Assembly (NCBI GenBank): GCA_036567965.1
Contig: DATCTN010000007.1
Span: forward strand, 49,009-113,008
Source: Candidatus Kryptoniota bacterium
GTDB lineage: Bacteria; Bacteroidota; Ignavibacteria; Kryptoniales; JAKASW01
Direction: 5' to 3'
Length of the DNA: 64,000 bases
Part shown: piece by piece, positions 1,205-58,790 of the stretch
Numbering within the stretch: position 1 is the first letter of the stretch
Layout of the letters: each line of letters starts with the position of its first letter
The notes under the pieces: generated by a model
What the model was told of the DNA's origin: nothing
The model's input: only the letters and a program-made list of their open reading frames with translations
The model's database searches: none
Position numbers and translations under genes: made by a program

Positions 1205-1222
1205 CCCGCCCGTGCTTACCGA

Positions 1223-6563: not shown

Positions 6564-6629
6564 GTCTATTCCGAATCCACAAAATCGAACTCCTTTGACG
6601 GTTGAAATTCACGATCGTGGTGGATACAT

Positions 6630-9602: not shown

Positions 9603-9639
9603 CATCTCTCGCTTGGCTTCAAGCATCGGATTCATCGTT

Positions 9640-9972: not shown

Positions 9973-10001
9973 TTGCAGCATCTGGGTTCGCTCCGGAGAA
10001 C

Positions 10002-11744: not shown

Positions 11745-12772
11745 AGAAGCCCTTCCGTTTCATTCAAGCCGAACATTAGATTAAAATTTTGTATCGCTTG
11801 TCCCGCTGCGCCTTTGCCGAGATTATCGATCGATGAAACGACTATGGCATAATCGGATTTTTCGACGCGCTTGACGGACATTACGCAAAGATTTGTGTTT
11901 GTAGTGTGCTGCATTGTCGCGGTGGCGTTTACATTCAGAACCTTGATGAATTGCTCGTCTCTATACGCAGCTTGATATAACTCGATCAGTTTTTGGGACG
12001 TCAAGTCTGAGTTGAGTTTTACGTAGATCGTATTCAACATGCCACGAGATATTGGTACAAGATGCGGCGCGAAAATTATGCCGAGGCTCCTGCCGGCTAT
12101 TTTATTGAGCTCCTGCTCGATTTCTCCCGTGTGCCTGTGAACGTAACCGATGCTGTATGGCGAAATATTCTCGTTCGTTTCTGCGAACAGGAGCCGCACC
12201 TCAGCTTTCCTGCCTGCGCCGGTGACTCCGGACTTCGCGTCGATGATTATCGGTGCCGCCGGATCGATCTTGTTATATTTCAGAAGAGGGTACACCCCGA
12301 GAATGGTTGCTGTGGGATAGCATCCGGGATTTGCGACGAATTTAGATTTCTTAATTGCTCTTCGGTTGATCTCGCTCAACCCGTACACAAAATGGTCGAG
12401 AAAATCAGGACTCGTGTGCTTCATTCCGTACCATTTCTCATACTCATCTGCGTCGTCGAATCGATAGTCGGCGCTCAAGTCAATTATCCTGGTCCTTCCG
12501 GATCCTTTTGCGAGTCTCTCGACCACATCTTTAGCGGCACCATGGGGAAGTGACAGGAATACTGCATCGACCTTCCGGGGGTCGACGTCTTCATTCCTGA
12601 CAATTTTCATATCGTCGGTAACCGGGAATATTTCACTGATATATTTCCCCGCCGACGTCTCCGCAGTTATGTACCTGATATCGGCATGCGGATGTTTCCT
12701 TAAAATCCTGTAAAGTTCAAACCCGGCGTAACCCGATACGCCAAAAATCGCGACTCTCTTTTTTCTACTCAT
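11741..12772 (-). CDS. argC: N-acetyl-gamma-glutamyl-phosphate reductase
   Basis: [14 protein letters not shown] (Rossmann) and ANPGCYPTA (catalytic Cys). Start trimmed to MSRKKRV, giving an ATGAGTAG 8-nt overlap with the lysC stop. Confidence 0.9.
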
Positions 12773-13994
12773 GTGCCAACATAAACTCCTTATGAAGAAC
12801 TTCAACTGCCTTCTTCATATCTTTTTCGTTTACCACTACAGAGATTTTAATTTCGCTAGTTGAAATCATCTGGATATTTATTCCCGATTCGGCCAGTACT
12901 TTAAACATTGTGGCCGCGACTCCGGAATGCGTTCTCATGCCGACGCCGACGACCGATACCTTCGCAACCTTGTCGTCTCCGACTACGTACGTCGCTTTCC
13001 TCTGTCTCACGAGATCCTGAAGGATCTCCATCGCGCGCCGGTAGTCATTTCGTGGTACTGTAAAGCTCATATCGGTGTAACCTTCGGAGCTTGCGCTTTG
13101 GATAATCATGTCCACCACGATCTCAGCATCGGCAAGCGGCGCGAACACGCTGTGCGCTATCCCGGGCCTGTCGGAGACGTGGAGCACCGTGATCTTGGCT
13201 TCGTTCTTATCGTGCGAAATCGCTGTCACAACCACGCTCTCCATATCAAGCGTTTCACTCACTACCATGGTTCCCTCGCTGTCATTGAAACTGCTTCTTA
13301 CATGAATTGGAATATCGAACTTCATTCCGAAGAGGACCGACCGGGTCTGAAGGACCTTCGCGCCCGAACTGGCAAGCTCAAACATTTCCTCGAAACTAAT
13401 TCTCTTCAGCTTTCTCGCAGCCGGTACGATGTCCGGATCGGCCGTGTAAACTCCGTCAACGTCCGTATAAATCTCGCAAACCAGCCCATCTTTCACGTGC
13501 GATTTCAAAGCGGCCGCTATCGCTACTGCAGTCGTATCCGAGCCGCCTCTTCCAAGTGTAGTGATGTCTCCCTTCTCATCAATTCCCTGAAAGCCCGCCA
13601 CGATCGCGATCGCACCTTCCTGGATCACGCTCAAGATTTTCTGGGCGTCGATGCTCTTGATGTGCGCCTTCGTGTAAGCCGAATCGGTGACCAACCTGAT
13701 CTGGTGGTTTTGAAGGGAGCGCGCATTGCAACCGGAAGAGATCAGTGCCATGGAGAGAAGGGCCGTCGACACCTGCTCGCCGGTGGACACGAGCACATCG
13801 AGCTCGCGGGGATCCGGCTCGGCGACTGTCGCTCTTGCCAGATCGAGGAGTCGATTGGTTTCGCCCGCCATTGCGCTGACCACGACGACGACATCATGTC
13901 CCTGCGACCTTGTACGCGCGACCCGCTGTGCCACGTTACGGATTCGGTCGATCGTTCCTACGGAAGTCCCGCCGAATTTTTGGACTACCAACAT
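12765..13994 (-). CDS. lysC: Aspartate kinase (with C-terminal ACT domains)
   Basis: [22 protein letters not shown] and [10 protein letters not shown]. 409 aa. Confidence 0.93.
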
Positions 13995-45513: not shown

Positions 45514-46656
45514 ATGAGGATGACAAGAGCCGAAGTAGATCTTTCGGCGATCAGTTATAACATAAAGCAGGTTGCCCATCGAGTGGGTGCGAACACGCGA
45601 ATTTTAGGGGTTATGAAGGCTAACGCGTATGGACACGGATTAGCAGCGGCCTCCCAGGCGGTGCTTGAATCAGGAGCAAGCTATCTCGGCGTCGCGTTCG
45701 ACGAGGAAGGCATCGACCTGAGAAAACACACTCAAGTACCCATCCTCGTCTTCTCGCCTCCCATTGAGGATTCATTCGAAAGTTATATCCGCTTTGATCT
45801 TGATTCGACTTTGACTTCTGTCGTAACTGCGTATTCATTAAACGCGGTAGCCCGGGCGAGCGGGCGCAAGGCGAGAGTCCAGATTAAAGTCGACACGGGA
45901 ATGGGAAGACTGGGCTTCTTTCCGAAAGAGGCACTCGATGCGGTGCGCGTAATCTCCAGTCTCGATTCGTTGACTCTTGTCGGCGTGTACTCGCATTTCG
46001 CAACTTCGGACGAAGCGAACAAGGAGTTCGCCCTGAGACAGCTCACCGCTTTCAGGGGAGTGGTCGCGGGGGTAAAGGACATGGGCCTTGACTCTCTCAT
46101 CTTTCATATGGCGAACAGCGGGGCAATTCTTGACATGCACGACACCTCCTTCGATATGGTTCGACCGGGGATAATGTCGTACGGATATTACCCGTCGATT
46201 GAAACTTCAGAGTCTGTCGACATCAAACCCGCTCTCTCATTGAAGTCGGCGGTTGCGCAGGTGAAGAATTTCCCTGCGGGCGCGAGTGTGAGCTACGGCA
46301 GAAGATATTTCACAAAGAAGAACTGCAGAATCGCCGTGATTCCTGTAGGATACGGCGATGGCTTCACTCGGCTTCTTACCGGCAAGGCGAACGTCATTAT
46401 TAAAGGCAAGAAGTTTCCGGTCGTAGGAACCATTACGATGGACCACGTGATGGTGGACGTAGGTGCAGAGTATGACATACAACCAGGTGACGAAGTAACG
46501 CTAATCGGCAGAGATGGAGAAGAGTCGATAACGGCCTGGGACCTTGCGGCCAGCATCGGCACCATTCCGTATGAGATTCTCTGCATGATAAACGGACGTG
46601 TGCCTAGAGTATACAATGGCATCGAACCCTCCCATGGCGAGCGTGAGAATCCATGA
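45514..46656 (+). CDS. alr: Alanine racemase
   Basis: GVMKANAYGHG (PLP-Lys), MANSGAIL and SYGRRY. Confidence 0.93.
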   Translation: MRMTRAEVDLSAISYNIKQVAHRVGANTRILGVMKANAYGHGLAAASQAVLESGASYLGVAFDEEGIDLRKHTQVPILVFSPPIEDSFESYIRFDLDSTLTSVVTAYSLNAVARASGRKARVQIKVDTGMGRLGFFPKEALDAVRVISSLDSLTLVGVYSHFATSDEANKEFALRQLTAFRGVVAGVKDMGLDSLIFHMANSGAILDMHDTSFDMVRPGIMSYGYYPSIETSESVDIKPALSLKSAVAQVKNFPAGASVSYGRRYFTKKNCRIAVIPVGYGDGFTRLLTGKANVIIKGKKFPVVGTITMDHVMVDVGAEYDIQPGDEVTLIGRDGEESITAWDLAASIGTIPYEILCMINGRVPRVYNGIEPSHGERENP

Positions 46657-47732
46657 GGGTTTTTGGAGTGATAATGGCGGGCGGCGTCGGCTCAAGACTG
46701 TGGCCGCAAAGCAGACAGGGAAGACCGAAGCAGTTCCAGGTATTATTCGGAGACCGCACGCTGTACCAGCGGACATTCGACAGGTTGACGAGGATTGTCA
46801 GTCCCGATAACATTTTCGTCGTGACCAACAAGGCACAGGAAGCCAACGCGGCGGAACAGCTCCCGAACCTTCCGAAGAAGAACCTTATTGTTGAACCTGT
46901 CGGGCGGAGCACTGCGCCTTGCATCGCCCTGGCGGCATGCGCGATCTCCTCAGTTACTGAAGACGCGGTAATGATGGTCTTTCCGGCGGATCATCTGATC
47001 TCTGGCGAAGATAACTTCGTGGCACAATTGAAGGATGCTGTCCGTCTCGCCCAAAAGCGGCGCGCCCTGGTTACTATCGGCATAAGACCCACATACCCGG
47101 AAACAGGATTCGGATACATCCACTATGACGAAAACCGCGATGAAGAGTTGTATCTCCATGGTGGACATTCGGTGATCGCGTTTAAAGAAAAGCCGGACCA
47201 TGACACGGCGGTGAAATTCCTATCGGAAGGGAATTACCTCTGGAACAGCGGGATGTTTGTCTGGCGTGTCGATGTTATACTCGAAGAGCTCCGCAAGAAT
47301 CTGGAGGGCTTCTCCGAATTTTTCGAACCTCTCAGGAGAAGTTTCGGCGGACCAGAATTCGGCAAACAGATAGAGAACTTTTATGCGAAGATCAGCTCGA
47401 TTTCTATCGATTATGCCGTCATGGAGAAAGCGGAAGGTGTCCTTACTCTTCCCGGCAAATTCGGCTGGAGCGACGTCGGTTCATGGGACGAAGTATATAA
47501 GTTGAGTAACAAGGATGAAGATGGAAACAGTCTTCATGGTCCGATCCTCAAGATCGGAAGCAGCAACAATCTTGTTTGGGCACAGGAAAAGACATTCGTC
47601 CTCGCAGATATTAAAGACTTGATAATCATCGAAACAAAGGATTCCGTACTGATTTGTAAAAGAGGAAGTTCACAGAGCGTCAAGGAAATAGTTGAGATAT
47701 TGAGGAAGCAGGACAGACAGGATCTGATTTGA
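46653..47732 (+). CDS. manC: Mannose-1-phosphate guanylyltransferase (no isomerase domain)
   Basis: FGVIMAGGVGSRLWPQSR, GYIHY and FKEKPD. 359 aa. Confidence 0.85.
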   Translation: MRVFGVIMAGGVGSRLWPQSRQGRPKQFQVLFGDRTLYQRTFDRLTRIVSPDNIFVVTNKAQEANAAEQLPNLPKKNLIVEPVGRSTAPCIALAACAISSVTEDAVMMVFPADHLISGEDNFVAQLKDAVRLAQKRRALVTIGIRPTYPETGFGYIHYDENRDEELYLHGGHSVIAFKEKPDHDTAVKFLSEGNYLWNSGMFVWRVDVILEELRKNLEGFSEFFEPLRRSFGGPEFGKQIENFYAKISSISIDYAVMEKAEGVLTLPGKFGWSDVGSWDEVYKLSNKDEDGNSLHGPILKIGSSNNLVWAQEKTFVLADIKDLIIIETKDSVLICKRGSSQSVKEIVEILRKQDRQDLI

Positions 47733-48172
47733 AGAAACTGACCGTCGTGACGTCGGTTCTTGTGGCGCTTTCATTGGCAGGGTGCTCTGCCGCGGCAAGG
47801 TTTGGCCAACCTTCGGGTCAAACCGAAGTCACCATGTCATCTCCTAGTTCTCCGTCGGGCAGGGCTCTCCTTAGCATCGAGGGTATCGCCTCCTACTATG
47901 CCGACGAGTTTAACGCCAGAAAGACGGCAAGTGGAGAAATCTTCGACAAGAATGCTCTCACCGCCGCGCACAGGGAGTTCCCGTTTGGTACGGTGTTGCG
48001 TGTGACCAACCTGAGCAACGGTAAGTCTGTCGAGGTTACTGTCAACGACCGCGGTCCGGTTGACAAAACCAGAATCATAGATCTTTCGGAGGGGGCCGCC
48101 CGTGCGTTAGATATGATTCAGACCGGAACGACTAAGGTTAGACTCGACGTCCTCAAGTGGGGAGAGAAATAG
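47729..48172 (+). CDS. rlpA: RlpA-family septal ring lytic transglycosylase-like lipoprotein (DPBB domain)
   Basis: Lipobox LSLAGC, GIASYYADEFNARKTASGEIFD and VTVNDRGP. Confidence 0.88.
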   Translation: MKKLTVVTSVLVALSLAGCSAAARFGQPSGQTEVTMSSPSSPSGRALLSIEGIASYYADEFNARKTASGEIFDKNALTAAHREFPFGTVLRVTNLSNGKSVEVTVNDRGPVDKTRIIDLSEGAARALDMIQTGTTKVRLDVLKWGEK

Positions 48173-48175
48173 GTC

Positions 48176-48694
48176 GTGCAGGAATACTCGTCCGAAGACA
48201 TACGGAGTATTTTTCGCACGAGTGGGGATTTCAACGAACTGTTCGAGGCGTTCAGATCTGCAATCGAAAAAGGTTTGAATGACCTCGATGCATATCGGGA
48301 ATTATTCTGGAACCAGACCCTCAAACCGGAAGAGCTTCTTTTCTTCGCGAAGAAACTTGGAGAGGTCTTTCCTGAAATCGGATATGATACATATATCTGG
48401 TTGTCTGAGGTGATGAACACGCGCTTCGATACAGAAGACACGCTTGAGCTGGCGTTTCTCTGTTTGAAGAAAGCTTCTGAGTTTAATCCCAAGTCGACCG
48501 ACCCTTACTTGCTTGCGTGTGAACTATACGATGAGGATCTGAGGATCCCAACACTTCAAAGCATCATGTCGTTTCTCAAAGGAGGTGTCGGGATCGTCGA
48601 GAATTCAAAGGTGCTCTGCGGGAGGCTCGCCACTATGTACAAGTCGCTCGGCAACGACGAGATGTTCAGGTATTACAGCGATATGGCTGGCTAG
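48176..48694 (+). CDS. Hypothetical protein (172 aa, helical, no family recognised)
   Basis: GTG-initiated ORF 3 nt after rlpA, within a co-directional array. Confidence 0.5.
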   Translation: MQEYSSEDIRSIFRTSGDFNELFEAFRSAIEKGLNDLDAYRELFWNQTLKPEELLFFAKKLGEVFPEIGYDTYIWLSEVMNTRFDTEDTLELAFLCLKKASEFNPKSTDPYLLACELYDEDLRIPTLQSIMSFLKGGVGIVENSKVLCGRLATMYKSLGNDEMFRYYSDMAG

Positions 48695-48705
48695 TCACCG
48701 ATAAG

Positions 48706-49575
48706 ATGCGGCTGCGCGGTTACATCTTTATTTTTCTGGCGGCATTCTTCTGGGGGACTTCAGGGACCGTCGCCAAATTCCTGTTTGAACATGACGTACC
48801 GACATTGCTTGTGGTAGAATCGAGAGTAATTATCTCTGCGGTTGTTCTATTCCTGACGCTGCTCGTCACGGATCCGGCTTCGCTCACGATACGTCTTCGA
48901 GATATTTGGGATTTCATATTGCTTGGCGTCATCGGCGTGGCGGGAGCGAACTACACTTATTATATGGCCATAAACGAGACGAGCGTCGGAATTGCAATTC
49001 TTATGCAGTACACAGCCCCAGTGATCGTCGCGGGATATATGCTCGTCTCTAAGAAAGAAAAGATAAGCCACTCAAAGACCGTCGCAATTGTCGTGTCTCT
49101 CATAGGATGCGTAATCATGCTCGGTGCACTCAATCCTGACGTGCACATAACCACAGCGGGAGCCGTATTAGGCGCGCTCTCAGCTTTTTCATTTGCATTC
49201 TTTAATATCTACAATCGGGTTGCATCCAAACGTTACTCAGTTTGGGCGGCGATTTGCTACACATTGATGAGTGCGTCTGCATTCTGGCTTGTTGTCAACA
49301 TGATAATTCGCCCGGGCTTCGTGATATCAGGCGCAAGAGAAGTGACAACCCTTGCTTTGTTTTCAGGCGCGTCAGTGCTCATCCCGTATTTTTTCTACTT
49401 TACCGGTCTCAAGTATCTTGTCCCGTCTACCGCAGTGATCGTCTCGACCCTTGAACCGGTGGTCGCGATCCTCACGGCTTTCATTTTGCTGGGGGAGAAA
49501 CTCCACCCTATGCAAATCGGCGGTGGCCTGCTGATAATATCTTCCGTGTTGCTGCTGGAAATAAGGCACGAATGA
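48706..49575 (+). CDS. EamA/DMT-family transporter
   Basis: 289 aa with 10 TM segments in two halves. N-terminal FWGTSGTVAKFL. Confidence 0.8.
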   Translation: MRLRGYIFIFLAAFFWGTSGTVAKFLFEHDVPTLLVVESRVIISAVVLFLTLLVTDPASLTIRLRDIWDFILLGVIGVAGANYTYYMAINETSVGIAILMQYTAPVIVAGYMLVSKKEKISHSKTVAIVVSLIGCVIMLGALNPDVHITTAGAVLGALSAFSFAFFNIYNRVASKRYSVWAAICYTLMSASAFWLVVNMIIRPGFVISGAREVTTLALFSGASVLIPYFFYFTGLKYLVPSTAVIVSTLEPVVAILTAFILLGEKLHPMQIGGGLLIISSVLLLEIRHE

Positions 49576-50153
49576 AGTCACAACGACGTATTGAGAGATT
49601 ATCTCAGACGATCAGGTATTCTCAGACGGATCTCACACTCGTCCTCGAGAACATACATGATCCGCATAATGTAAGTGCGATTCTCAGGACTTGCGATGCA
49701 GTCGGCGTAAGAAGTATTAATCTACTATACAATCTTGAGCCCTTTCCGAAAATCGGGAAGAAGAGCTCCGCTAGCGCCAACAAGTGGGTAGAGAAGAGAC
49801 TCTTCAGATCTCCTGATGACTGTTTCAATGTTTTGAAGCAAGAAGGGTTCGTGATTGCAGCCAGCGTCGTGGATGAAAGCTCTGTGTCTCTGTTCGAAAT
49901 GGATCTGCGGAATAAAACTGCGTTGATATTTGGCAACGAGCATCGGGGGGTGACCGATAAATCGGCGGCTATGGCTGATGTCAGATTTAGAATACCCATG
50001 TTCGGAATGGTACGGAGCTTAAACGTTTCAGTCGCTTGTGCTATTACTCTTTACGAAGCATTGCGCCAACGATTGGCAGAACCCGACAAATTTCCCCCGA
50101 AGATAAACGCCGACAAATTCCACGAAAAGCTTCAGGAATGGATGAAGAAATAA
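49572..50153 (+). CDS. trmH: SpoU/TrmH-family RNA 2'-O-methyltransferase (tRNA Gm18-type)
   Basis: LVLENIHDPHNVSAILRTCDAVG, IFGNEHRGV and SLNVSVACAI. Confidence 0.82.
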   Translation: MKSQRRIERLSQTIRYSQTDLTLVLENIHDPHNVSAILRTCDAVGVRSINLLYNLEPFPKIGKKSSASANKWVEKRLFRSPDDCFNVLKQEGFVIAASVVDESSVSLFEMDLRNKTALIFGNEHRGVTDKSAAMADVRFRIPMFGMVRSLNVSVACAITLYEALRQRLAEPDKFPPKINADKFHEKLQEWMKK

Positions 50154-50209
50154 AGATAAGTTGACTTTGTCTGGGGCAAAGAGTAAAATCTTTTGAGTCG
50201 GAAGAGGTC

Positions 50210-51265
50210 ATGGCCGAAATAGTAACCGTCAAGAACATTCTCCACGAGCACACCGTCGAAGGTGAACTGTATAAGAAACTTGACAACGACTGGGTGCTGT
50301 GTTACAGCTGCGGGCACAGGTGCAAGATTAAACCGGGAAGAGAAGGAATCTGCCGGGTCCGGTTCAATAGCAACGGTAAACTTATGGTTCCCTCCGGTTA
50401 TGCGGCCGGTGTCCAGCTGGACCCGATCGAGAAAAAACCTTTCTTCCACGCCTTCCCGGGATCGAATGCGCTTAGTTTTGGAATGCTGGGTTGTGATTAT
50501 CATTGCTCATATTGCCAGAATTGGCTCACGAGTCAAACGCTAAGAGATCCGTCCGCTATTCAACATCCGGAGGTAATCGAAGCGGAACGAATCGTTGAAC
50601 TCGCACTCATATACAAATCACCGGTCATTGTCTCAACTTACAATGAGCCGCTCATCACCAGTGAGTGGGCAGTTGAAATAATGAAACTTGCTAAGGCTTA
50701 TGGAATCAGGGGAGCGTATGTGTCAAATGGAAACGCGACTCCTGAAGTTATTGAATACATCAAGCCGTATGTTAACCTTTACAAGGTCGACTTGAAAGGG
50801 TTCGACGATCGGAGATACAGACAGCTTGGCGGAAGGCTGCAGGTTGTCCTCGATGCGATTCGCCTTCTCAAAGAAAAGAATTTCTGGGTCGAGGTAGTAA
50901 CTCTTGTGGTTCCAGGATTCAACGACAGTGAAACAGAGTTGCGAAGCATTGCATCTTTCATTGCATCAGTCTCAGTCGACATTCCGTGGCATGTCACTGC
51001 GTTCCACCAGGATTATAAGATGCTCGACCGGAACAGCACGAGCGTGAGATCGCTGGTGAGGGCAGCGGAAATCGGGAAAGAAGCGGGACTTCATTTCGTC
51101 TACGCGGGCAATCTTCATGGAATGGTAGACGATCTTGAAAACACATACTGTCCGAAGTGTGGAAGTCTCGCGATCGAACGAGAAGGTTATAGGGTACTTA
51201 AGAATCTTTTGAAGAAAGGAGCGTGTCCACAATGCTCCACGATGATTCCGGGCATATGGGATTGA
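50210..51265 (+). CDS. AmmeMemoRadiSam system radical SAM enzyme
   Basis: GCDYHCSYCQNW (CxxxCxxC), an N-terminal extra Cys cluster CYSCGHRC...C, and C-terminal CPKC...CPQC. PFL-activase-like length. Followed by AMMECR1 and Memo genes. Confidence 0.85.
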   Translation: MAEIVTVKNILHEHTVEGELYKKLDNDWVLCYSCGHRCKIKPGREGICRVRFNSNGKLMVPSGYAAGVQLDPIEKKPFFHAFPGSNALSFGMLGCDYHCSYCQNWLTSQTLRDPSAIQHPEVIEAERIVELALIYKSPVIVSTYNEPLITSEWAVEIMKLAKAYGIRGAYVSNGNATPEVIEYIKPYVNLYKVDLKGFDDRRYRQLGGRLQVVLDAIRLLKEKNFWVEVVTLVVPGFNDSETELRSIASFIASVSVDIPWHVTAFHQDYKMLDRNSTSVRSLVRAAEIGKEAGLHFVYAGNLHGMVDDLENTYCPKCGSLAIEREGYRVLKNLLKKGACPQCSTMIPGIWD

Positions 51266-51855
51266 GCTCAGGGCTTTCGGCGGAAGCCAAGGTTGAGCTT
51301 TTGAAAATCGCGAGAAGAGGGCTGGAAGCGGTCGTGAAAAGGGAGAAATTGAAGCTTGATACTCCGGTTCTCCCCGAGCTTCAAAGGGAGTCGGGGGCGT
51401 TTGTCACTTTGAGAGAGAAGGGTGAGCTACGCGGATGTATCGGGTATATCGAGCCCAGGCTCCCGATGTACAAGGCGGTGGCCGAGACGGCCAGCAAGGC
51501 CGCAACAAGTGACCCAAGATTTGAACCGGTGACTGAACCGGAGCTTGAAAAAATCGATCTGGAGGTTTCAATCCTCTCTGCGCTCAACAAAGTGACAAAT
51601 GTCGAAGAAATTGTTGTCGGGCGACATGGCCTGGTGATTGAGCGCGGGTACTACAGAGGCCTTCTTCTTCCGCAGGTCGCGGGCGAGAATAATTGGGACC
51701 GCAACGAGTTTCTCCGGTATACTTGTTTCAAGGCCGGTCTGGACGACGACAGCTGGCGGGATCCCGATACAAAAATATACAGCTTCACTGCAGAAGTGTT
51801 TGGTGAAAGTGAGTTCGGAAGGATTTCCGAGGAGAATATTGCAGAAAGAGCATGA
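51256..51855 (+). CDS. AmmeMemoRadiSam system protein A (AMMECR1 domain)
   Basis: GAFVTLREKGELRGCIGY (AMMECR1 RGCIG motif) and GLLLPQV. Start trimmed to MGLSSGL, a 10-nt overlap with the radical SAM gene. Confidence 0.85.
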   Translation: MGLSSGLSAEAKVELLKIARRGLEAVVKREKLKLDTPVLPELQRESGAFVTLREKGELRGCIGYIEPRLPMYKAVAETASKAATSDPRFEPVTEPELEKIDLEVSILSALNKVTNVEEIVVGRHGLVIERGYYRGLLLPQVAGENNWDRNEFLRYTCFKAGLDDDSWRDPDTKIYSFTAEVFGESEFGRISEENIAERA

Positions 51856-51859
51856 CTAC

Positions 51860-52681
51860 GTGCGTCCCCCGGCAGTAGCCGGGATGTTCTATCCGCTGGA
51901 GAAGGTGGAGCTCGAGAAGACAGTGCTCGACTTCCTCAAGAAGGCAGGGAAGGATATCGGATCGGCGGCGCCCACGAACCCGTTCGGAATAATATCGCCT
52001 CACGCCGGTTACCCCTACAGTGGATTCACTGCGGCTCATGGCTATTCGGTTCTGCGCGAAACAAACTTTGATACCGTCGTTTTGATTTCACCAAGTCACC
52101 GGGAGTACTTCGACGGCATTTCTGTTTTTTCCGGTAAAGCTTATTCTACTCCGCTGGGAACAATAGAAGTTGATACGGCTCTCCGCGAAACTTTTCTGCT
52201 AAGCGCCGGAGATATTGCGATCGAATCGCGCGCCGGCCACAAGTCGGAACACGCCCTTGAGGTCCAGCTACCATTTCTGCAACTCACTTTGAAGAGATTC
52301 GCCATACTTCCCCTTGTTATGGGAGACCAGCGACCCGAATACTGCGCAGCACTCGGCGGCGTTCTTGCAAAGATTGCGAACACGACCAAAATACTAGTCG
52401 TGGCAAGTTCCGACCTGTCGCACTATTACGACTACGATACGGCAAATGAAATTGACAAGATCTGCATCAACGATCTGACGGAGATGGACCCCGACAGATT
52501 TACGCGGGATCTCGAAGCACATAAGTGCGAGGCGTGTGGTGGAGGACCGATAGCCGCGCTTCTTTACGCTGCGCGGGACCTGAACCGCCGAAAGATAACG
52601 ATTCTCCATCACTGTAATTCCGGGGATACGACAGGTGATAAGTCCGGAGTTGTCGGATACTTGTCAGCCGTCGTCTCGTGA
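51860..52681 (+). CDS. AmmeMemoRadiSam system protein B (Memo-like)
   Basis: In-frame GTG start giving (M)RPPAVAGMFYP, then ISPHAGYPYSG, SSDLSHYY and CEACGGGP. 4-nt gap after protein A. Confidence 0.85.
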   Translation: MRPPAVAGMFYPLEKVELEKTVLDFLKKAGKDIGSAAPTNPFGIISPHAGYPYSGFTAAHGYSVLRETNFDTVVLISPSHREYFDGISVFSGKAYSTPLGTIEVDTALRETFLLSAGDIAIESRAGHKSEHALEVQLPFLQLTLKRFAILPLVMGDQRPEYCAALGGVLAKIANTTKILVVASSDLSHYYDYDTANEIDKICINDLTEMDPDRFTRDLEAHKCEACGGGPIAALLYAARDLNRRKITILHHCNSGDTTGDKSGVVGYLSAVVS

Positions 52682-53568
52682 CCACCGACGTGGTTTCATT
52701 TTCGATTATCGGACCTGGCCGGGTGGGCTCAAGCCTTGCGTCTGCTCTGATAAACAGGCGATGGGTTTGTAAGGACATAGTATACGACGAGAGAGCTTTG
52801 CGAATGAAAGCTCAAGTGGTTCGGTCTCTGCCAGGGGCGAAGCTCGTGAAAAGCACCGGTTTGCTCAGAGATAATTTTGAAATACTATTTGTCACAGTGA
52901 ATGATGACGCGATAGCCGGAGTTGCGGCTCAACTCATGAGGAATTCCAGCGTTAACTGGAGGGGAAAAACCGTCTTCCATATGAGCGGCATCGTGGGAGT
53001 GAACGTGTTGGAACCCCTTGCGAAGAGAGGAGCCGCAGTCGGTGCGCTCCACCCGCTCGCTGCGTTCCCAAGACCTCTGCATCCTGAAGGGGCGATGAAT
53101 ATCCGGTTCGACTTTCTTGGTTCGCGGAAAGCCCTGACCGGCGCGAGAAAAGTGTCGACGGTCTTGAACTCGAAGCTGATTGTGCTGAAATCTGAGTTTG
53201 AAAAAGTGAATCTCCACCTAGCAAGTGTGATCGCAACCAATTTCGTGACAATCGCGGCGCAGGCCGCAGCAGGACTTGCTAATAGCTCGATAGGGAAGCG
53301 AGAGACAAAGCTGATAATCGATGGCTTGCTTGCCAGCGCTGTTTCCAACATATCCTCGCTCGATGGTCTTTCGGCCTTGAGCGGGCCGCTGATTCGCGGC
53401 GACGTGGAAGTAATATCCAAACATTTGAGCGCGCTCAAGGATAGCGAAACTCTGCTTGCTTTTTACAAAGCGGCATCGCGCCTCGGCGTCGAATCGCTTC
53501 TGAGGGAGAAGAAATTGAAAACGCTCGCTCCGAAATATCGGAGAATCAGAGACATTCTCTCGAAATAG
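52678..53568 (+). CDS. Rossmann-fold + DUF2520-like oxidoreductase
   Basis: FSIIGPGRVGSSLASAL (dinucleotide-binding loop), FHMSG and GALHPLAAF. GTGA overlap with the Memo-like gene. Confidence 0.7.
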   Translation: MTTDVVSFSIIGPGRVGSSLASALINRRWVCKDIVYDERALRMKAQVVRSLPGAKLVKSTGLLRDNFEILFVTVNDDAIAGVAAQLMRNSSVNWRGKTVFHMSGIVGVNVLEPLAKRGAAVGALHPLAAFPRPLHPEGAMNIRFDFLGSRKALTGARKVSTVLNSKLIVLKSEFEKVNLHLASVIATNFVTIAAQAAAGLANSSIGKRETKLIIDGLLASAVSNISSLDGLSALSGPLIRGDVEVISKHLSALKDSETLLAFYKAASRLGVESLLREKKLKTLAPKYRRIRDILSK

Positions 53569-53604
53569 CCGAAACGTTTCTGGTATTTATGAAGGAGGTA
53601 ATGT

Positions 53605-54387
53605 ATGGACTATCAGACTATTAAGATTGTGAAAGAGAAACATGCCGCAATAATCACAATTAACCGGCCCGAAAAGTTGAACGCGTTGAACGCCAATGTA
53701 CTGAAAGAGATCGGTTCAGCCCTGAGCAACATAGAGTCTGAAAAGTCAGTCGCCGGAGTGATCATTACCGGCGCGGGAGAAAAAGCTTTTGCTGCGGGCG
53801 CGGACATAAGCGAGCTGAGCAAACTCAGTGTTATAAACGCTAAGGACTATTCGGAACGCGGACAGACTCTCCTCAACACGATTGAGAAGTTTCGCAAGCC
53901 TGTCATTGCAGCTGTCAACGGTTACGCGCTGGGCGGCGGCAGCGAGCTGGCATGGGCGTGCCATATCAGAATCGCCTCGACCAACGCGCGATTCGGACAA
54001 CCGGAAGTGAACCTCGGAATGATACCGGGATTCGGCGGCACTCAACGACTCGTAAGACTTGCCGGTCGCGGGATCGCTACCGAACTCATCGTATCGGGTA
54101 ACCAGATCGATGCCGAGACGGCTTTCAAGCATGGTTTGGTGAACAAGGTCGTCGAACTGGCATACTTGATCCCGACGGCGCTTCAACTTGTCCATGATAT
54201 TTCAGAACGTGGTCCGGTAGCCGTGAAATTGGCCCTGCAGGCGATCGACGCTGCCGTTCAACTTCCGCAGGACGAGGGAATGAAACTTGAGAGTCAACTC
54301 TTCGCGCTTACGTGCGGGACCGCCGATCAAAAGGAAGGAACAGCGGCTTTCCTGGAAAAACGCAAGCCAAACTGGACCGGCTCCTGA
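53605..54387 (+). CDS. Enoyl-CoA hydratase (crotonase family)
   Basis: ITGAGEKAFAAGADI and AAVNGYALGGGSELA. 260 aa. AGGAGG SD. Confidence 0.9.
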   Translation: MDYQTIKIVKEKHAAIITINRPEKLNALNANVLKEIGSALSNIESEKSVAGVIITGAGEKAFAAGADISELSKLSVINAKDYSERGQTLLNTIEKFRKPVIAAVNGYALGGGSELAWACHIRIASTNARFGQPEVNLGMIPGFGGTQRLVRLAGRGIATELIVSGNQIDAETAFKHGLVNKVVELAYLIPTALQLVHDISERGPVAVKLALQAIDAAVQLPQDEGMKLESQLFALTCGTADQKEGTAAFLEKRKPNWTGS

Positions 54388-54448
54388 GCAGAATGCCGAT
54401 CGAATTCTCCTTTCATAAACTCCCATCATTTTGTAAATTGAGAGAAGT

Positions 54449-55561
54449 ATGATGGATCCCGAAAGAAGATATAGAGTCCTCGTCGCGATGAGTGGTGGTG
54501 TCGATTCGTCACTGGCAGCTGCCTTGATGATGGAACAGGGATTTGATGTTATCGGCGCGACCATCAAGACCTACGAATACGAGGATGTGGGTGGCAATTC
54601 CGCCCAGGACTCAACCTGCTGCTCGATCGACGGCATAAACATGGCTCGAAGCGTGGCCAGCAGGTTTGGATTTCCTCATTATGTTTTCGACTTCAGCGAA
54701 CGTTTCAGAAATGATGTCATAGATCAATTTGTATCGGAGTATCTTGCCGGACGCACACCCAATCCGTGCGTCATCTGCAACAGGAAAATAAAATGGGAGT
54801 ACCTTCTCGAAAAGGCCGATAGTCTGGGAGTGGATTATATCGCGACCGGACATTACGCCCATGTGAAGCGGGACGATCGGTCGGGAAGATATGTCCTTTC
54901 AAGAGGCAAGGACTCTTCAAAAGACCAGTCTTACGCGCTTTACGGCCTGACACAGGAAAGTCTCTCACGAACTCTCTTCCCGCTCACAGACCTGACAAAA
55001 CAGGAAGTCCGCGAAATGGCACGCCGTTACCGACTGGCCAGTGCGGACAAGCCGGAGAGTTATGAAATTTGTTTCATACCTGATAACAACTATTCGAGGT
55101 TTCTCCGTGACATAGTTCCTGGATTGAAATCGAGACTTGCCGACGGTGAGATACGATTCAACGGAACTAAGGTCGGGATTCATCAGGGATACGCATTCTA
55201 TACGATCGGTCAGCGAAGAGGGCTCGGCATCAGTCATGAATCCCCGCTCTACGTCAAGGGGATCGATCCGTCTACAAATGTTGTAGAGGTTGATGTCGAA
55301 GAGAATCTCTATGCCAAGAGGCTCATCGCGGAACAGGTAAATCTCGTAAAATACTCCGAGGTGCCTGAAGGAATACCCCTTCGCGGAAAGATCCGATACA
55401 AGGACGCGGGCGCTGAATGCGTTGTGCGAAATCTCGATAACAGGAAAATTGAAGTCGAGTTCCTCAGCCCGCGAAGGGCAATAACGCCCGGCCAGAGTGT
55501 GGTCTTATACGAGGGCGACGATGTCGTGGCAGGTGGAATTATTTCAAATATTTTGGGTTGA
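54449..55561 (+). CDS. mnmA: tRNA 2-thiouridine(34) synthase
   Basis: VLVAMSGGVDSS (PP-loop), TPNPCVICNRKIKW and DQSY. Confidence 0.93.
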   Translation: MMDPERRYRVLVAMSGGVDSSLAAALMMEQGFDVIGATIKTYEYEDVGGNSAQDSTCCSIDGINMARSVASRFGFPHYVFDFSERFRNDVIDQFVSEYLAGRTPNPCVICNRKIKWEYLLEKADSLGVDYIATGHYAHVKRDDRSGRYVLSRGKDSSKDQSYALYGLTQESLSRTLFPLTDLTKQEVREMARRYRLASADKPESYEICFIPDNNYSRFLRDIVPGLKSRLADGEIRFNGTKVGIHQGYAFYTIGQRRGLGISHESPLYVKGIDPSTNVVEVDVEENLYAKRLIAEQVNLVKYSEVPEGIPLRGKIRYKDAGAECVVRNLDNRKIEVEFLSPRRAITPGQSVVLYEGDDVVAGGIISNILG

Positions 55562-55562
55562 T

Positions 55563-55970
55563 ATGGCGACTTACTCGGTATTGATTGCTGACGACGATGA
55601 ATCACAGAGAAACGTGCAGAAACTGGTTCTGAGCGAGGTGGCAAAGAGTCTGAATGCAGAATTGAAAATCGATGAGGCGATCGACAGCGTTGAAACGAGA
55701 AAATTCCTTTCGGCGAAGGTATTCGATCTGATTATTCTCGATAATGAATTCAAAGATGATTTGAAGCAGGGGCATCTTCCGGGTATCGCACTACTTCAAC
55801 TTATGCGCAAGGGCGGACCGAACATGGCGGCCCCTACGGTTTTCTGCAGCGGCGACCCATACAACACTCTTCGTCCCATGGTGGAAAAATTCGGAGCGGT
55901 GTACTATCCCAAGGCTAAAGCAGATGCCGAGGAGATGACCAAGATGTTTTCTAAGATGCTTCAGGATTGA
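55563..55970 (+). CDS. Stand-alone response regulator receiver domain
   Basis: VLIADDDESQ (acidic pocket), DLIILDNEF (phospho-acceptor Asp), VFCSG and YYPKAK. Start trimmed to MATYSV, 1 nt after the mnmA stop. Confidence 0.75.
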   Translation: MATYSVLIADDDESQRNVQKLVLSEVAKSLNAELKIDEAIDSVETRKFLSAKVFDLIILDNEFKDDLKQGHLPGIALLQLMRKGGPNMAAPTVFCSGDPYNTLRPMVEKFGAVYYPKAKADAEEMTKMFSKMLQD

Positions 55971-56662
55971 CTTGTCTTTCGCAGCTCAAGAACGATGTGC
56001 TGCGCCTTGTCGACAAGCTTTATGAGGGGATAATTTACTAGCCTCCAAATCCAAAGAGGGAGATTTTCAAAAAGAACGGCAGCTCGAAGGAGCGTCATCA
56101 CTTTGCTTCCGAAAATGTAAGCCTTGACGTTGCATCCAGGAAAGAGGCTCACAAGACCTCCCTTGTCGAAGCTGGTCAAATGAGCGTTCAAGGGGGTCGG
56201 CTGGTTGCAATGGATGCACAGCGTGTAACGAATCTTCTCTCTGTATGGAGTCGAGACCACGGCTTTTCCGTCGGGTTTCATGACTCGCAAGATCTCGCGT
56301 GCCGCAGCATCGGGAGAGTTCAAGTGTTCCATGATTTCGGAAGCGACAATCAGATTCATGGACTCGTCTTTGAACGGAAGATGAACAGCATCTGCGAGAA
56401 CCGGGGAGGATGTATCGGTCTTAAGACTTTGAAGATTCCTCAGCGATAGGTCTACGTAGTATAAATTCTCATGAGGAACAACTGAGATCCATCCGCTTCC
56501 GCTCCCGATGTCGAGCGTTCTCCCGGCTCCTCCCGCAAGGCGGACGATGAATTTCCGGAAAAGTTTTTCATATGCCCGGTCCGTGCGGTCCTCGTTCGTG
56601 AAATAATCGAAGTGTTCGGCATCAAGACTGTAGTGCCTGATGTAATTCTCGCAGCGACTCAT
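55961..56662 (-). CDS. Class I SAM-dependent methyltransferase
   Basis: TLDIGSGSGW (motif I) and a Methyltransf_11-like ADAVHLPFKDESMNLIVASEIMEHL. ATGA overlap with the macro gene. Confidence 0.8.
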   Translation of the reverse strand: MSRCENYIRHYSLDAEHFDYFTNEDRTDRAYEKLFRKFIVRLAGGAGRTLDIGSGSGWISVVPHENLYYVDLSLRNLQSLKTDTSSPVLADAVHLPFKDESMNLIVASEIMEHLNSPDAAAREILRVMKPDGKAVVSTPYREKIRYTLCIHCNQPTPLNAHLTSFDKGGLVSLFPGCNVKAYIFGSKVMTLLRAAVLFENLPLWIWRLVNYPLIKLVDKAQHIVLELRKTSQS

Positions 56663-57186
56663 GATTTGATATTCTTCAGTTCGTTTTCAAACGCCTGATA
56701 AGCTGCCGCGTCATAGAGTATAAATGTGACCCGCCGCAGAGAATGCGGTCGCGAGAAGACGCCGACGACTTCCTTCATCATCACCCGAGCCGCCTCGCCG
56801 AGAGGGAATCCACCGACTCCCGTTCCCAGCGCCGGTAATGCTATCGAACTGAGCTTCCTGGATTCCGCAAGTGTGAGTGCCGAACGCGTGGCCTCAGCGA
56901 TCTTGCCTCCATCTGTTTGCAGGTCTTGGTCCATTACGGCGGCGTGAATCACAAATCTTGCCTTTAACGTTCCGCCGGAGGTGATTACAGCAGAACCGAC
57001 AGGCATGGGACCCTGCGACATCGCCTCTTGTTCGATGGCGGTTCCACCCTTTCGCTTTATTGCCCCGGCTACTCCGCTCCCCATCCAGAAGTGATTGTTC
57101 GCCGCGTTTACGACAGCATCACCGCCATACTCGGCAATATCACCTTTTGCAAGCTCCAGGATACTTCCTTTAAAGTCCTTTTTCAT
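56659..57186 (-). CDS. Macro domain protein (ADP-ribose / O-acetyl-ADP-ribose binding or hydrolysing)
   Basis: GDIAEYGGDAVVNAANNHFWMGSGVAGAIKRKGG and ALPALGTGVGGFP. Confidence 0.85.
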   Translation of the reverse strand: MKKDFKGSILELAKGDIAEYGGDAVVNAANNHFWMGSGVAGAIKRKGGTAIEQEAMSQGPMPVGSAVITSGGTLKARFVIHAAVMDQDLQTDGGKIAEATRSALTLAESRKLSSIALPALGTGVGGFPLGEAARVMMKEVVGVFSRPHSLRRVTFILYDAAAYQAFENELKNIKS

Positions 57187-58790
57187 TTCGCTCGAGACTG
57201 GATCAACGGAAGCTTAACTGTCATCTTTGTCCCTTTGCCTAATTCGCTCTGGATCTGAATTTCACCGCCATGATCATCGACAATCTTCTTAACGATTGAC
57301 ATCCCGAGACCGGTGCCGTGTTTTTTTCCGTAGGTTACGAACGGCTCGAAGATTCTTCTCCTTATTTCTTCGGGCATGCCGGTACCGGTATCTTCGAGCT
57401 CGATCATAAGAGACGTGCCGCTTTGCCTTGAGCGGACAAAAAATTTGCCGCCGTCGGGCATTGCATCCGCCGAATTACCGGCTATGTTCATTAACATCCG
57501 AGTAATCTTGTCGGCATCGATCTCGATTTCACTTTCAAATGAATTCTCGTTCAATAAACTTATGTTACGTTTTTCGAAATCTCGCTGAAGGAACACTAGC
57601 ACTTCCTGGAGAAAATCTCCATAAGCGACTTTCTGAAAATTCAGCTGGGAGACTCCCCGTGAGAAATCGAGTACCTCCTGCGCCATGTTCACGAGTCGGT
57701 CGATCTGTTTATCGATCTCGTCGACAAGGCCCGAAGCTTCCTCGTTCCCGGCTTTCTTCCTCAATACCTGGGCGTAGAGTCGGATTGTCGCCATCGGGTT
57801 CTTGATATCATGGATGATCGTCGCTGCCATCTGACCTACAGCCGAAAGCCGCTCGCTTTTCACCATCTCAGCTGCCAAACGAGAATTCTCAATGGCAATG
57901 GAGGCATTTATAGAAAATGCACGGAGAAAGGTTTCGTCTTCTGTATCGAACTTGCCGATTCGTTTATTTATTAATTGGAAAACTCCTATGATTTTATTGT
58001 CCCTGTTATTCATCGGCATACAAAGTATGTTCTTGGTTTTAAACCCGCTTTTCAGATCAAATTCGGGATTGAACCTCGGGTCATGATAAGCGTCCTCGAT
58101 ATTAACCGTCTCGCCAGTCTGGGCCACATATCCTGAGATGCCTTTGCCGATGGACTGCCTGATCTCATTCATCTCGTTTCCAACGAGTATCCTCGACCAG
58201 ATCTCGTGTGTGTTTTCATCTATGAGATAAATTGTCCCGCGCTCCGCGTCTGTTATACGCATGGCCTCGTTTAATATGAGCTCGAGGACACGAGTAATTT
58301 CCAGCGACGTGTTTACGGTTTGAGTGGCTTCAATTAGAGCGTGGAGGCGGCTGATTTCCTTGTCGGTCTTCTGTCCCTGTGTCTCCATCTGAGTTTTAAG
58401 CGCATCCGCGGAAGCCTGCAGTCGACTGTAAAGAGTTCTTGCAATGTTCCATGAAATGACAGGGAATTGCTTTATCAGATCAGGGAGTGTCTCCCGATTG
58501 ATCTTCAACAATATGGAATCGCGGGTAGTAACCACGGTAGCCGAATTTCTCACTCCATCCACCATTGCCATCTCGCCGAAGAAATCGCCAGCCGAAAGAG
58601 TCCCGAGTTTCTCCTGTCTGTCGCCGATACGCTTTCTGATTTCTATTTCGCCCGACTTGATTATATAAAGTGCCTGAACCGGTCCCTTCTCCTCCATGAT
58701 GATCGTGCCAGCCGCGGCCTTCTCCTTGTGAAGCGGTTTGCACGCCTCGGCAACGTCTCTTTCGCTCATTCCTTCGAATAATGAATACAT
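57183..58790 (-). CDS. Cytoplasmic sensor histidine kinase: cNMP-binding + GAF + HisKA + HATPase_c
   Basis: An N-terminal CAP-type cNMP domain (GDFFGEMAMV...ATVV), a GAF region (ERGTIYLIDENTHEIW...GISGYVAQTGE), the H-box ATIIHDIKNPMATI, and DTGTGMPEE / GTGLGMSIV. No TM segments seen. Confidence 0.85.
   Translation of the reverse strand: MYSLFEGMSERDVAEACKPLHKEKAAAGTIIMEEKGPVQALYIIKSGEIEIRKRIGDRQEKLGTLSAGDFFGEMAMVDGVRNSATVVTTRDSILLKINRETLPDLIKQFPVISWNIARTLYSRLQASADALKTQMETQGQKTDKEISRLHALIEATQTVNTSLEITRVLELILNEAMRITDAERGTIYLIDENTHEIWSRILVGNEMNEIRQSIGKGISGYVAQTGETVNIEDAYHDPRFNPEFDLKSGFKTKNILCMPMNNRDNKIIGVFQLINKRIGKFDTEDETFLRAFSINASIAIENSRLAAEMVKSERLSAVGQMAATIIHDIKNPMATIRLYAQVLRKKAGNEEASGLVDEIDKQIDRLVNMAQEVLDFSRGVSQLNFQKVAYGDFLQEVLVFLQRDFEKRNISLLNENSFESEIEIDADKITRMLMNIAGNSADAMPDGGKFFVRSRQSGTSLMIELEDTGTGMPEEIRRRIFEPFVTYGKKHGTGLGMSIVKKIVDDHGGEIQIQSELGKGTKMTVKLPLIQSRAK

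Follow-up and report, generated by a model that had tools for sequence, protein, structure and literature searches.

In a 64,000-nucleotide stretch of a Candidatus Kryptoniota genome, referred to here as the window, genes for a radical SAM enzyme (rSAM), an AMMECR1-domain protein and a Memo-family protein are followed by genes for a DUF2520 oxidoreductase and a crotonase. Do these five genes encode one pathway? AMMECR1 and MEMO1 are human homologues with links to disease, and to our knowledge the eukaryotic proteins function without a partner radical SAM enzyme of the AmmeMemoRadiSam family. No chemistry has been assigned to the prokaryotic triad, as the original prediction had stated; neither the literature we surveyed nor the names of PDB entries offered a functional assignment or biochemical characterization. 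Given this gap and the disease links of the human homologues, a reliable extra pathway member would be a useful handle. The original prediction proposed a four- or five-enzyme pathway from the tight packing of the genes, and an RNA-related role from the tRNA-modification genes around them.

Results

The window carries a complete AmmeMemoRadiSam system

The three triad genes, arranged as rSAM, then AMMECR1, then Memo, make up an ordinary, complete AmmeMemoRadiSam system (Table 1). They are contiguous and co-directional, to the base as predicted, and in HMM searches all three products exceed the curated cut-offs of the system-specific models: rSAM scores 276.8 bits against TIGR04337 (cut-off 220), AMMECR1 187.3 bits against TIGR04335 (cut-off 99) and Memo 285.8 bits against TIGR04336 (cut-off 26). 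AMMECR1 and Memo also match PF01871 (188.9 bits) and PF01875 (217.6 bits), the domains in which they are homologous to human AMMECR1 and MEMO1. The closest PDB entry to Memo is human MEMO1; for AMMECR1 the closest are PH0010 and MM0484, both hypothetical proteins.

Table 1. Features of the triad locus and its neighbours, in window coordinates
Feature	Position	Strand	Details
SpoU-family RNA 2'-O-methyltransferase (TrmH-like), upstream neighbour	49572..50153	+	Pfam SpoU_methylase 117 bits
Sigma-70-like promoter match	50161..50189	+	TTGACT-17-TAAAAT; consensus match 10/12
Radical SAM (rSAM) gene, AmmeMemoRadiSam system radical SAM enzyme	50210..51265	+	351 aa; TGA stop 51263-51265
AMMECR1-domain gene, AmmeMemoRadiSam system protein A	51256..51855	+	199 aa; ATG 51256; TGA stop 51853-51855
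Memo-family gene, AmmeMemoRadiSam system protein B	51860..52681	+	273 aa from GTG 51860; TGA stop 52679-52681
Rossmann-like and DUF2520 NAD(P)H oxidoreductase, putative PanG family	52678..53568	+	GTG start 52678; TAG stop 53566-53568
Crotonase-family enoyl-CoA hydratase/isomerase, neighbour	53605..54387	+	ATG 53605; ECH_1 240 bits
tRNA 2-thiouridine(34) synthase MnmA, downstream neighbour	54449..55561	+	NF001138 413.3 vs cut-off 284
Single-domain receiver-like protein	55563..55970	+	Response_reg E 1.9e-5, 25.2 bits; gathering score 30.2

Every motif quoted beforehand is present in the translations: CYSCGHRC...C, GCDYHCSYCQNW and CPKC...CPQC in rSAM, LRGCIGY in AMMECR1, and SPHAGY, DLSHYY and CEACGGGP in Memo. 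Across 122 AMMECR1 sequences, the Leu, first Gly, Cys and last Gly of LRGCIG are 100% conserved and the Arg 97%; in 142 Memo sequences, the His of PHAGY, DLSH, two more His, H..EH and a conserved Cys-Gly are conserved at 99-100%. No conserved Cys, His or Asp position of the known system is missing here, and nothing essential differs. Its gene order does differ from the 80 loci of a second lineage, which are arranged B-A-rSAM or rSAM<>B-A.

The four quoted junctions are likewise present in the open reading frames and junction sequences: a 10-nt overlap of rSAM and AMMECR1, a 4-nt gap between AMMECR1 and Memo, a GTGA overlap of Memo and DUF2520, and a 36-nt gap before the crotonase. The Memo start is ambiguous, as the public gene call of an identical protein has 292 aa (P0101), a length that implies an alternative start codon (GTG, 51803) lying 53 nt inside the AMMECR1 gene. 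The AMMECR1 reading frame has a further GTG upstream, at 51223. Transcription of the unit may begin at the putative promoter in the 56-nt gap preceding rSAM. It comes from a scan that returned 15 sites versus 9.7 +/- 3.0 in shuffled sequence, with a sigma-70 consensus that may not be the host's.

The AmmeMemoRadiSam copy in this genome is already known and annotated, and is a textbook example. Public records name the identical rSAM protein "AmmeMemoRadiSam system radical SAM enzyme" (NCBI; P0221) and give close Memo relatives AmmeMemoRadiSam names.

Family resemblance suggests PflA-like chemistry

Among characterised proteins, PflA and other glycyl-radical activases score best as relatives of the rSAM core (TIGR02493, E 7e-17), and a weak PflA match is found in the PDB (3c8f, E 1e-4). 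From this resemblance we infer a PflA-like enzyme that would hold its [4Fe-4S] cluster on C95, C99 and C102; this C95-x3-C99-x2-C102 (CX3CX2C) motif is 100% conserved in 59 homologues. The same set shows 98-100% conservation of two more four-Cys sites: C31/C34/C38/C48 near the N-terminus and C314/C317/C339/C342 within a zinc-ribbon-like C-terminal stretch. The enzyme would cleave SAM to yield a 5'-deoxyadenosyl radical and then abstract hydrogen, either from AMMECR1 or Memo itself or from a substrate that a complex of the two would hold. Three other lineages encode A and B as a single fused protein (L061, 560 aa; L065, 506 aa; L066, 522 aa), which leads us to propose that the two may work in physical association.

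Assignment of the window rSAM as a glycyl-radical-enzyme activase was considered and rejected. Although its core resembles PflA, NrdG and their relatives, it scores far under the family cut-offs (TIGR02493, 61.6 vs 231.75; TIGR02494, 57.0 vs 174.35). Unlike PflA-type activases, it has the additional conserved N-terminal four-Cys cluster and the C-terminal CxxC...CxxC pair, and no glycyl-radical enzyme is encoded near the rSAM locus.

The fourth gene resembles PanG

Pfam supports the original description of the gene behind Memo, with PF10727 at 49.1 bits (gathering score 23) and PF10728 at 62.8 bits (gathering score 25); among NCBIfam models we found no match to the protein. Its identity to members beyond its own clade is only 22-35%, and it nonetheless keeps all 12 family-invariant positions, including G12, G14, H101, H125-P126, H180 and R240-G-D242, in an alignment that took in the panBC-linked members P0059 and P0033. 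An AF2 model (pLDDT 94) places it nearest to BF3122 and TM1727, followed by imine and P5C reductases. Homologues in JGI carry a COG5495-type label.

Several lines in the literature connect this family to pantothenate synthesis. A DUF2520 protein is described as a homologue of Francisella PanG, FTT1388 (PMC4572677); the pan operon contains Rv3603c/COG5495 (PMC3317503), and Rv3603c of M. tuberculosis is panG (10.1101/2024.03.29.587195; see also PMC11626117). These proteins have the two-domain Pfam architecture of the window protein, for which the NAD(P)H-reductase fold of PanG is also predicted, and panBC-linked members have the same invariant residues. None of seven DUF2520 genes from other phyla lies beside Memo or AMMECR1, and two of the seven (Bryobacteraceae and Phototrophicaceae) lie directly upstream of panB-panC, an arrangement that is consistent with the PanG ketopantoate-reductase family. 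Unlike the pan-operon members, the window gene sits behind Memo, and neither panB nor panC is found within the 64-kb window. Kryptoniota do encode PanC, and in two related loci panC lies upstream in the same co-directional string, roughly 4 kb away in L002 and roughly 7 kb away in L006. On these sequence comparisons, the fourth gene appears to encode an NAD(P)H ketopantoate reductase of the PanG type, acting in pantothenate (vitamin B5) and CoA synthesis.

DUF2520 follows Memo in one lineage

Could this protein nevertheless serve the AMMECR1-Memo(-rSAM) pathway of Kryptoniota and Ignavibacteria as its dedicated reductase, co-transcribed, translationally coupled and reducing a keto or imine intermediate? 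In favour of such a role, the predicted fold is that of NAD(P)H-dependent C=O and C=N reductases. DUF2520 follows AMMECR1-Memo on the same strand in 52 of 61 loci of Kryptoniota/Ignavibacteria type. The median distance is 8 nt, and in 13 loci the genes overlap by 4 nt. The adjacency is therefore old and no coincidence of one genome. Spacing usually stays between -4 and +21 nt in two classes despite DUF2520 identity down to 25-44%, and DUF2520 was kept by AMMECR1-Memo while nearly every other neighbour changed from one class to the other. In Ignavibacteria the gene is more tightly linked to AMMECR1-Memo than rSAM is; the rSAM gene, clustered in the window, stands alone elsewhere in the genome of this sister group (L028 and L158, from the same MAG).

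Beyond this lineage the association fails. Among the 80 second-lineage metagenome loci, in which the triad is nearly always present where flanks permit, DUF2520, ECH (crotonase) and NTP-transferase genes occur in none, and L061b, L065 and L066, three distant triads, likewise lack them. Together with the positions of DUF2520 genes in other phyla, away from Memo and in two cases beside panBC, this speaks against the reading of adjacency as a four- or five-enzyme pathway. Even within the lineage, at least six loci lack DUF2520 but retain AMMECR1-Memo, the NTP_transferase gene and the remainder of the block. The unrelated NTP_transferase is almost equally conserved: of 50 complete blocks, 44 contain DUF2520, 41 NTP_transferase and 28 ECH. 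The family-invariant residues, all unchanged, also speak against a specialised reductase. We consider a dedicated fourth enzyme unlikely, although it is the most probable of the rival readings; DUF2520 is probably a conserved neighbour of AMMECR1-Memo in the Kryptoniota-Ignavibacteria lineage and not a component of the system.

Tight retention of DUF2520 behind Memo is a pattern also expected of a true operon partner.

Translational coupling had been offered as evidence for a pathway. The triad is embedded in a string of 13 genes that all run in one direction, the others being unrelated housekeeping genes. Within this string, 4-nt overlaps also join Ala racemase (alr) to the gene of a ManC-type NTP transferase (manC), manC to a DPBB lipoprotein gene and EamA to SpoU. 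Because these overlaps link clearly unrelated genes, coupling is uninformative here.

The crotonase junction reflects a missing gene

A wider version of the pathway would add the crotonase, and perhaps the NTP_transferase of relatives, acting on a CoA-thioester or nucleotide-activated intermediate. This part of the predicted neighbourhood does recur: 28 of 68 loci, from both classes, have a crotonase gene 1-4 kb downstream. The order AMMECR1-Memo-DUF2520-NTP_transferase-ECH is common to Kryptoniota and Ignavibacteria, and one DUF2520 protein (P0077) is fused to a PF01467 nucleotidyltransferase domain. The direct DUF2520-crotonase junction is another matter. In 14 of the 14 Kryptoniota relatives with sequence at that point, a 358-aa NTP_transferase gene follows DUF2520 in the place held by the crotonase in the window, and the two genes adjoin here because the window genome is without it. 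Moreover, the crotonase has its own strong Shine-Dalgarno sequence (GAAGGAGG) upstream of its ATG, after the 36-nt gap. About half of the complete blocks lack ECH, 6 of the 14 Kryptoniota relatives among them, as do all 80 loci of the second lineage. The protein itself falls under every cut-off of the NCBIfam equivalogs and resembles a generic short-chain enoyl-CoA hydratase. Membership of the crotonase in a five-enzyme pathway is thus very improbable.

The tRNA-modification flanks are local

The predicted flanks held in part. MnmA is secure, also by TIGR00420 (326, cut-off 236.95), and the receiver-like gene that follows it is kept after mnmA in Kryptoniota loci, with a Response_reg score that falls short of the gathering score. 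Assignment of the upstream gene as TrmH (tRNA Gm18 2'-O-methyltransferase) was rejected (NF008295, 154.9 against a cut-off of 227), leaving membership in the SpoU_methylase family.

These flanks raise the question of whether the triad modifies tRNA or another RNA, a role that its neighbours would mirror. A SpoU-family methyltransferase on one side and MnmA on the other fit such a role, as do TsaE and a TsaB/TsaD-family gene in the L002 string, and modification of nucleotide bases or isoprenoids has reportedly been proposed for Memo systems. However, these tRNA-modification genes flank the triad block in Kryptoniota loci only, where they are interleaved with genes for Ala racemase, a sugar nucleotidyltransferase, a DPBB lipoprotein, an EamA transporter, AccD, agmatinase and PanC. 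Beyond the triad genes, no neighbour recurs in more than 12 of the 80 second-lineage loci, and no tRNA gene is found in the window. We regard an RNA substrate as quite improbable on present evidence; the SpoU-type methyltransferase and MnmA would be local neighbours.

Discussion

Our analysis makes it likely that the locus comprises an ordinary three-gene AmmeMemoRadiSam system, with the PflA-like chemistry proposed above, and housekeeping neighbours that include a PanG-type reductase. The place of DUF2520 behind Memo would then be an old feature of Kryptoniota-Ignavibacteria gene order and not a requirement of the system. In this picture the gene identities, residue conservation, gene orders and fusions are observations, and the triad chemistry, the A-B complex and the PanG activity are predictions. 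The extra members suggested by adjacency fail beyond one lineage, and the best candidate among them, DUF2520, belongs to a family already known to serve a housekeeping function, the synthesis of vitamin B5. As a well-formed example of a known, annotated system, the window provides no new lead, and the chemistry of the triad is no more testable through it.

What remains is the lineage-specific gene order AMMECR1-Memo-DUF2520. One could envision that these genes, perhaps with NTP_transferase and ECH, form a functional module of the lineage, with a PanG-like reductase recruited to, or always serving, AMMECR1/Memo chemistry and the rSAM partner of Ignavibacteria encoded elsewhere. We hold this to be rather unlikely. 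If true, it would tie the function of AMMECR1 and Memo to 2-keto-acid, pantoate or CoA-type metabolites, a concrete substrate class.

Identity of the triad and its gene string

All three proteins of the AmmeMemoRadiSam triad score above the curated cut-offs of the system-specific HMMs. The radical SAM (rSAM) enzyme reaches 276.8 bits against TIGR04337 (cut-off 220), the AMMECR1 protein (protein A) 187.3 bits against TIGR04335 (cut-off 99), and the Memo protein (protein B) 285.8 bits against TIGR04336 (cut-off 26), so a challenge to the identity of the triad on the ground of sub-threshold scores fails. We aligned homologues from two lineages (59 rSAM, 122 AMMECR1 and 142 Memo sequences). In rSAM, the CX3CX2C cysteines (C95, C99, C102), an N-terminal four-cysteine set (C31, C34, C38, C48) and a C-terminal CxxC...CxxC set (C314, C317, C339, C342) are 98-100% conserved; the AMMECR1 LRGCIG motif is 97-100% conserved and the Memo His, Asp and Cys positions 99-100%. 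The window proteins have every one of these residues, and all peptide motifs originally quoted for them were found in the translations. Glycyl-radical activases are the nearest characterised relatives of rSAM, although the window enzyme falls far below their cut-offs. The nearest solved structures to protein A are structural-genomics 'hypothetical proteins', and human MEMO1 is nearest to protein B. The triad is a known system, defined by comparative genomics, and this copy is already so annotated: the identical rSAM in NCBI is named 'AmmeMemoRadiSam system radical SAM enzyme [Candidatus Kryptonia bacterium]', and close Memo relatives carry the public name 'AmmeMemoRadiSam system protein B'.

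By ORF calls, the triad lies within a single co-directional string of 13 genes (see table). The junction sequences agree exactly with the original prediction: a 10-nt overlap of rSAM and AMMECR1, a 4-nt gap between AMMECR1 and Memo, a GTGA overlap of Memo with the Rossmann-like + DUF2520 gene (hereafter DUF2520), and a 36-nt gap before the crotonase gene (ECH), which contains the Shine-Dalgarno sequence GAAGGAGG. The Memo start is ambiguous because an identical public protein, P0101, is called at 292 aa, with a start at 51803, 19 codons 5' of 51860, so that the AMMECR1 and Memo genes would share 53 nt; gene calls of close Memo relatives range from 278 to 292 aa. The gene upstream of rSAM that had been labelled 'trmH' is listed here as a SpoU-family member only, because its score is below the TrmH equivalog cut-off. 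Three minus-strand genes, joined by 4-nt overlaps, converge on the string, and this set is kept in Kryptoniota loci.

Coordinates of features in the window and in the loci compared
Sequence	Feature	Coordinates	Strand
Window	Co-directional string	45514-55970	+
Window	1, alanine racemase		+
Window	2, ManC-type NTP transferase		+
Window	3, DPBB lipoprotein		+
Window	4, 172-aa protein, no Pfam match		+
Window	5, EamA transporter		+
Window	6, SpoU-family methyltransferase		+
Window	7, rSAM	stop 51263-51265	+
Window	8, AMMECR1	ATG 51256, stop 51853-51855	+
Window	9, Memo	GTG 51860, stop 52679-52681	+
Window	10, Rossmann-like + DUF2520	GTG 52678, stop 53566-53568	+
Window	11, crotonase	ATG 53605	+
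Window	12, MnmA		+
Window	13, small receiver-like protein		+
Window	Converging three-gene set	55961-58790	-
Window	Class I SAM methyltransferase	55961-56662	-
Window	Macro-domain protein	56659-57186	-
Window	cNMP-binding + GAF + HisKA + HATPase sensor kinase	57183-58790	-
Window	NTP_transferase paralogue	33902-34897	-
L001	NTP_transferase + LbH gene	11709-12785	
L002	String upstream of DUF2520	2740-6783	
L006	PanC gene region	3199-4113	
L037	Two halves of the inverted duplication	120-5596; 5891-11372	
L061	Memo-AMMECR1 fusion, 560 aa	5485-7167	-
L065	Memo-AMMECR1 fusion, 506 aa	9229-10749	+
L066	Memo-AMMECR1 fusion, 522 aa	9689-11257	+
L158	Lone rSAM orthologue	5001-6056	
L159	Lone rSAM orthologue	5001-6107	
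L160	Acyl-CoA dehydrogenase gene	3623-4876	

The tight junctions had been read as translational coupling and as a sign of a four- or five-enzyme pathway that takes in DUF2520 and perhaps the crotonase. That argument is not borne out. Functionally unrelated genes of the same string are likewise joined by 4-nt overlaps of the ATGA/GTGA type (alanine racemase/ManC, 46653-46656; ManC/DPBB lipoprotein, 47729-47732; EamA/SpoU, 49572-49575), and overlap is therefore a property of this compact genome and does not argue for a shared pathway. The 56-nt gap 5' of the rSAM gene contains a sigma-70-like match (10/12). Co-transcription from rSAM through DUF2520 is plausible. A terminator scan found 9 sites against 11.0 +/- 3.1 in shuffles, no excess over expectation; both sites that fall within the block (at 51868-51883 and at 52680-52695) are weak matches inside coding sequence, so that this prediction is evidence neither for nor against an internal terminator.

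Gene neighbourhoods within and beyond the lineage

A lineage scan with one genome per species, tabulated by tblastn and ORF clustering, yielded 68 loci, mostly from Candidatus Kryptoniota and Ignavibacteria-type MAGs (Memo 44-70% identical). AMMECR1 and Memo stand side by side almost everywhere. DUF2520, at 25-44% identity among loci, directly follows Memo in 52 of the 61 lineage loci with sequence there, at an estimated spacing of -17 to +21 nt in 50 of these (median 8 nt). The adjacency is kept in related genomes and so is not a one-genome accident. The common order is AMMECR1-Memo-DUF2520-(PHP)-NTP_transferase-(ECH), where NTP_transferase is a nucleotidyltransferase gene. Its members are lost independently of one another: among 50 complete blocks, DUF2520 occurs in 44, NTP_transferase in 41 and ECH in 28, and six loci retain AMMECR1-Memo-NTP without DUF2520.

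On the 3' side, the block is followed in Ignavibacteria by genes for a class II aminoacyl-tRNA synthetase, a TPR protein and a ZIP transporter, and in Kryptoniota by MnmA and the receiver. An RNA-modification role for Memo systems has reportedly been raised by Burroughs et al. 2019 (cited in PMC7159879). The tRNA-modification neighbourhood, from which an RNA- or cofactor-modification hypothesis had been drawn, lends the RNA-modification idea no independent support: only in Kryptoniota is the block flanked by the SpoU gene, MnmA and the receiver. On one Kryptoniota-type contig, L160, the SpoU and rSAM genes are separated by an inserted acyl-CoA dehydrogenase gene.

According to the lineage tables, rSAM adjoins AMMECR1-Memo in Kryptoniota-type loci only. 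The Ignavibacteria orthologue (64-67% identical) stands alone elsewhere; in MAG JAPUKJ01 it is found on contig L158 and the AMMECR1-Memo-DUF2520-NTP block on another, L028. Its neighbours on L158 are a DinB_2 gene on one side and a glycosyltransferase gene on the other, and on L159 a lone orthologue is followed by a zf-CDGSH gene.

Of the Kryptoniota relatives, 14 have sequence 3' of DUF2520, and in every one of them (for example L001) the next gene is a 358-aa NTP_transferase + LbH gene. The window has no orthologue at 53568-53605, only a 27% paralogue on the opposite strand, so the 36-nt gap between DUF2520 and the crotonase marks the place of a gene that is missing. The same junction occurs in five Ignavibacteria-type loci (L024, L034, L050, L058 and L062). 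We set aside an apparent second AMMECR1-(Memo)-DUF2520 cassette on L037, a nanopore-derived contig. The contig is palindromic, its 5.5-kb inverted duplication being 95% identical and containing frameshifts, and this assembly artefact looks like a fold-back; a real second cassette would have pointed to a mobile three-gene module.

The best 120 matches in protein searches were close relatives only, and distant triad contexts were taken from a metagenome scan. Its query, a Memo alignment with a Dechloromonas-type sequence at its head, gave 80 loci (Memo 45-72% identical to that type), whose ORFs we searched by HMM. Nearly everywhere that flanks allowed, the triad was present, either in the order Memo-AMMECR1-rSAM or with rSAM next to Memo-AMMECR1 in divergent orientation. 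None of the 80 loci had a match to DUF2520, ECH or NTP_transferase at E <= 1e-5, and in neighbour clustering nothing outside the triad recurred in more than 12 loci or gave a functional hint. Natural Memo-AMMECR1 fusions occur in an Ignavibacteriota MAG (L061), a Falkowbacteria MAG (L065) and a Dechloromonas MAG (L066), abutted by rSAM in L061 and L066. These distant triads (in L061 a second copy) are without DUF2520; L061 has a separate Memo-DUF2520 pair on the strand opposite the fusion. From the other side, we took DUF2520 genes of other phyla, seven in all (Aminicenantes, Legionellaceae, Bryobacteraceae, Phototrophicaceae, two further contigs of Acidobacteria type and one other): none has Memo or AMMECR1 nearby, and two lie directly upstream of panB-panC. 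The pairing retained across 52 lineage loci could mean that DUF2520 is a real lineage-specific partner; we regard this as unlikely.

The DUF2520 gene as a PanG candidate

In the literature, the Rossmann-like + DUF2520 (COG5495) family is assigned to PanG, a ketopantoate reductase of pantothenate synthesis. One DUF2520 protein has been described as a homologue of Francisella PanG (FTT1388) (PMC4572677), and PMC4684696 gives a summary of what Miller et al. 2013 found in Francisella. Rv3603c (COG5495) lies within the pan operon (PMC3317503) and has been named panG (10.1101/2024.03.29.587195); PanG is taken to be the M. tuberculosis ketopantoate reductase in PMC11626117.

An alignment that includes panBC-linked DUF2520 members has 12 invariant positions, and the window protein matches at every one. 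In a fold search with its AlphaFold model (pLDDT 94), two DUF2520 entries from structural genomics, BF3122 and TM1727, came out nearest, followed by imine reductases and P5C reductases. The predicted fold is that of the NAD(P)H C=O/C=N reductase class, a general class that does not fix the substrate. Sequence and modelled structure fit placement in the PanG family. Neither panB nor panC lies within the 64-kb window. PanC (Pantoate_ligase, 350 bits) is encoded in Kryptoniota: in two species the 5' extension of this co-directional string holds TsaE, a TsaB/TsaD-family gene, AccD, agmatinase and PanC, the last of these upstream of DUF2520 by ~4 kb in L002 and ~7 kb in L006. A 425-aa DUF2520 protein, P0077, is fused to a PF01467 cytidylyltransferase-like domain. 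PF01467 includes phosphopantetheine adenylyltransferase, and the fusion may thus point once more to the CoA pathway as the place where the DUF2520 family acts.

Discussion

We think it probable that the window holds a three-gene system among housekeeping neighbours, with the DUF2520 gene being PanG. The triad is complete, with all conserved metal- and cluster-binding residues present, and Memo and AMMECR1 are naturally fused in three other lineages. We infer that proteins A and B would act as one complex and that the PflA-like rSAM would generate a 5'-deoxyadenosyl radical, which would take hydrogen from a substrate bound by the A-B complex, or from A or B. The lineage-wide AMMECR1-Memo-DUF2520(-NTP-ECH) order, with rSAM dispersed in Ignavibacteria, may be new and is a modest lead.
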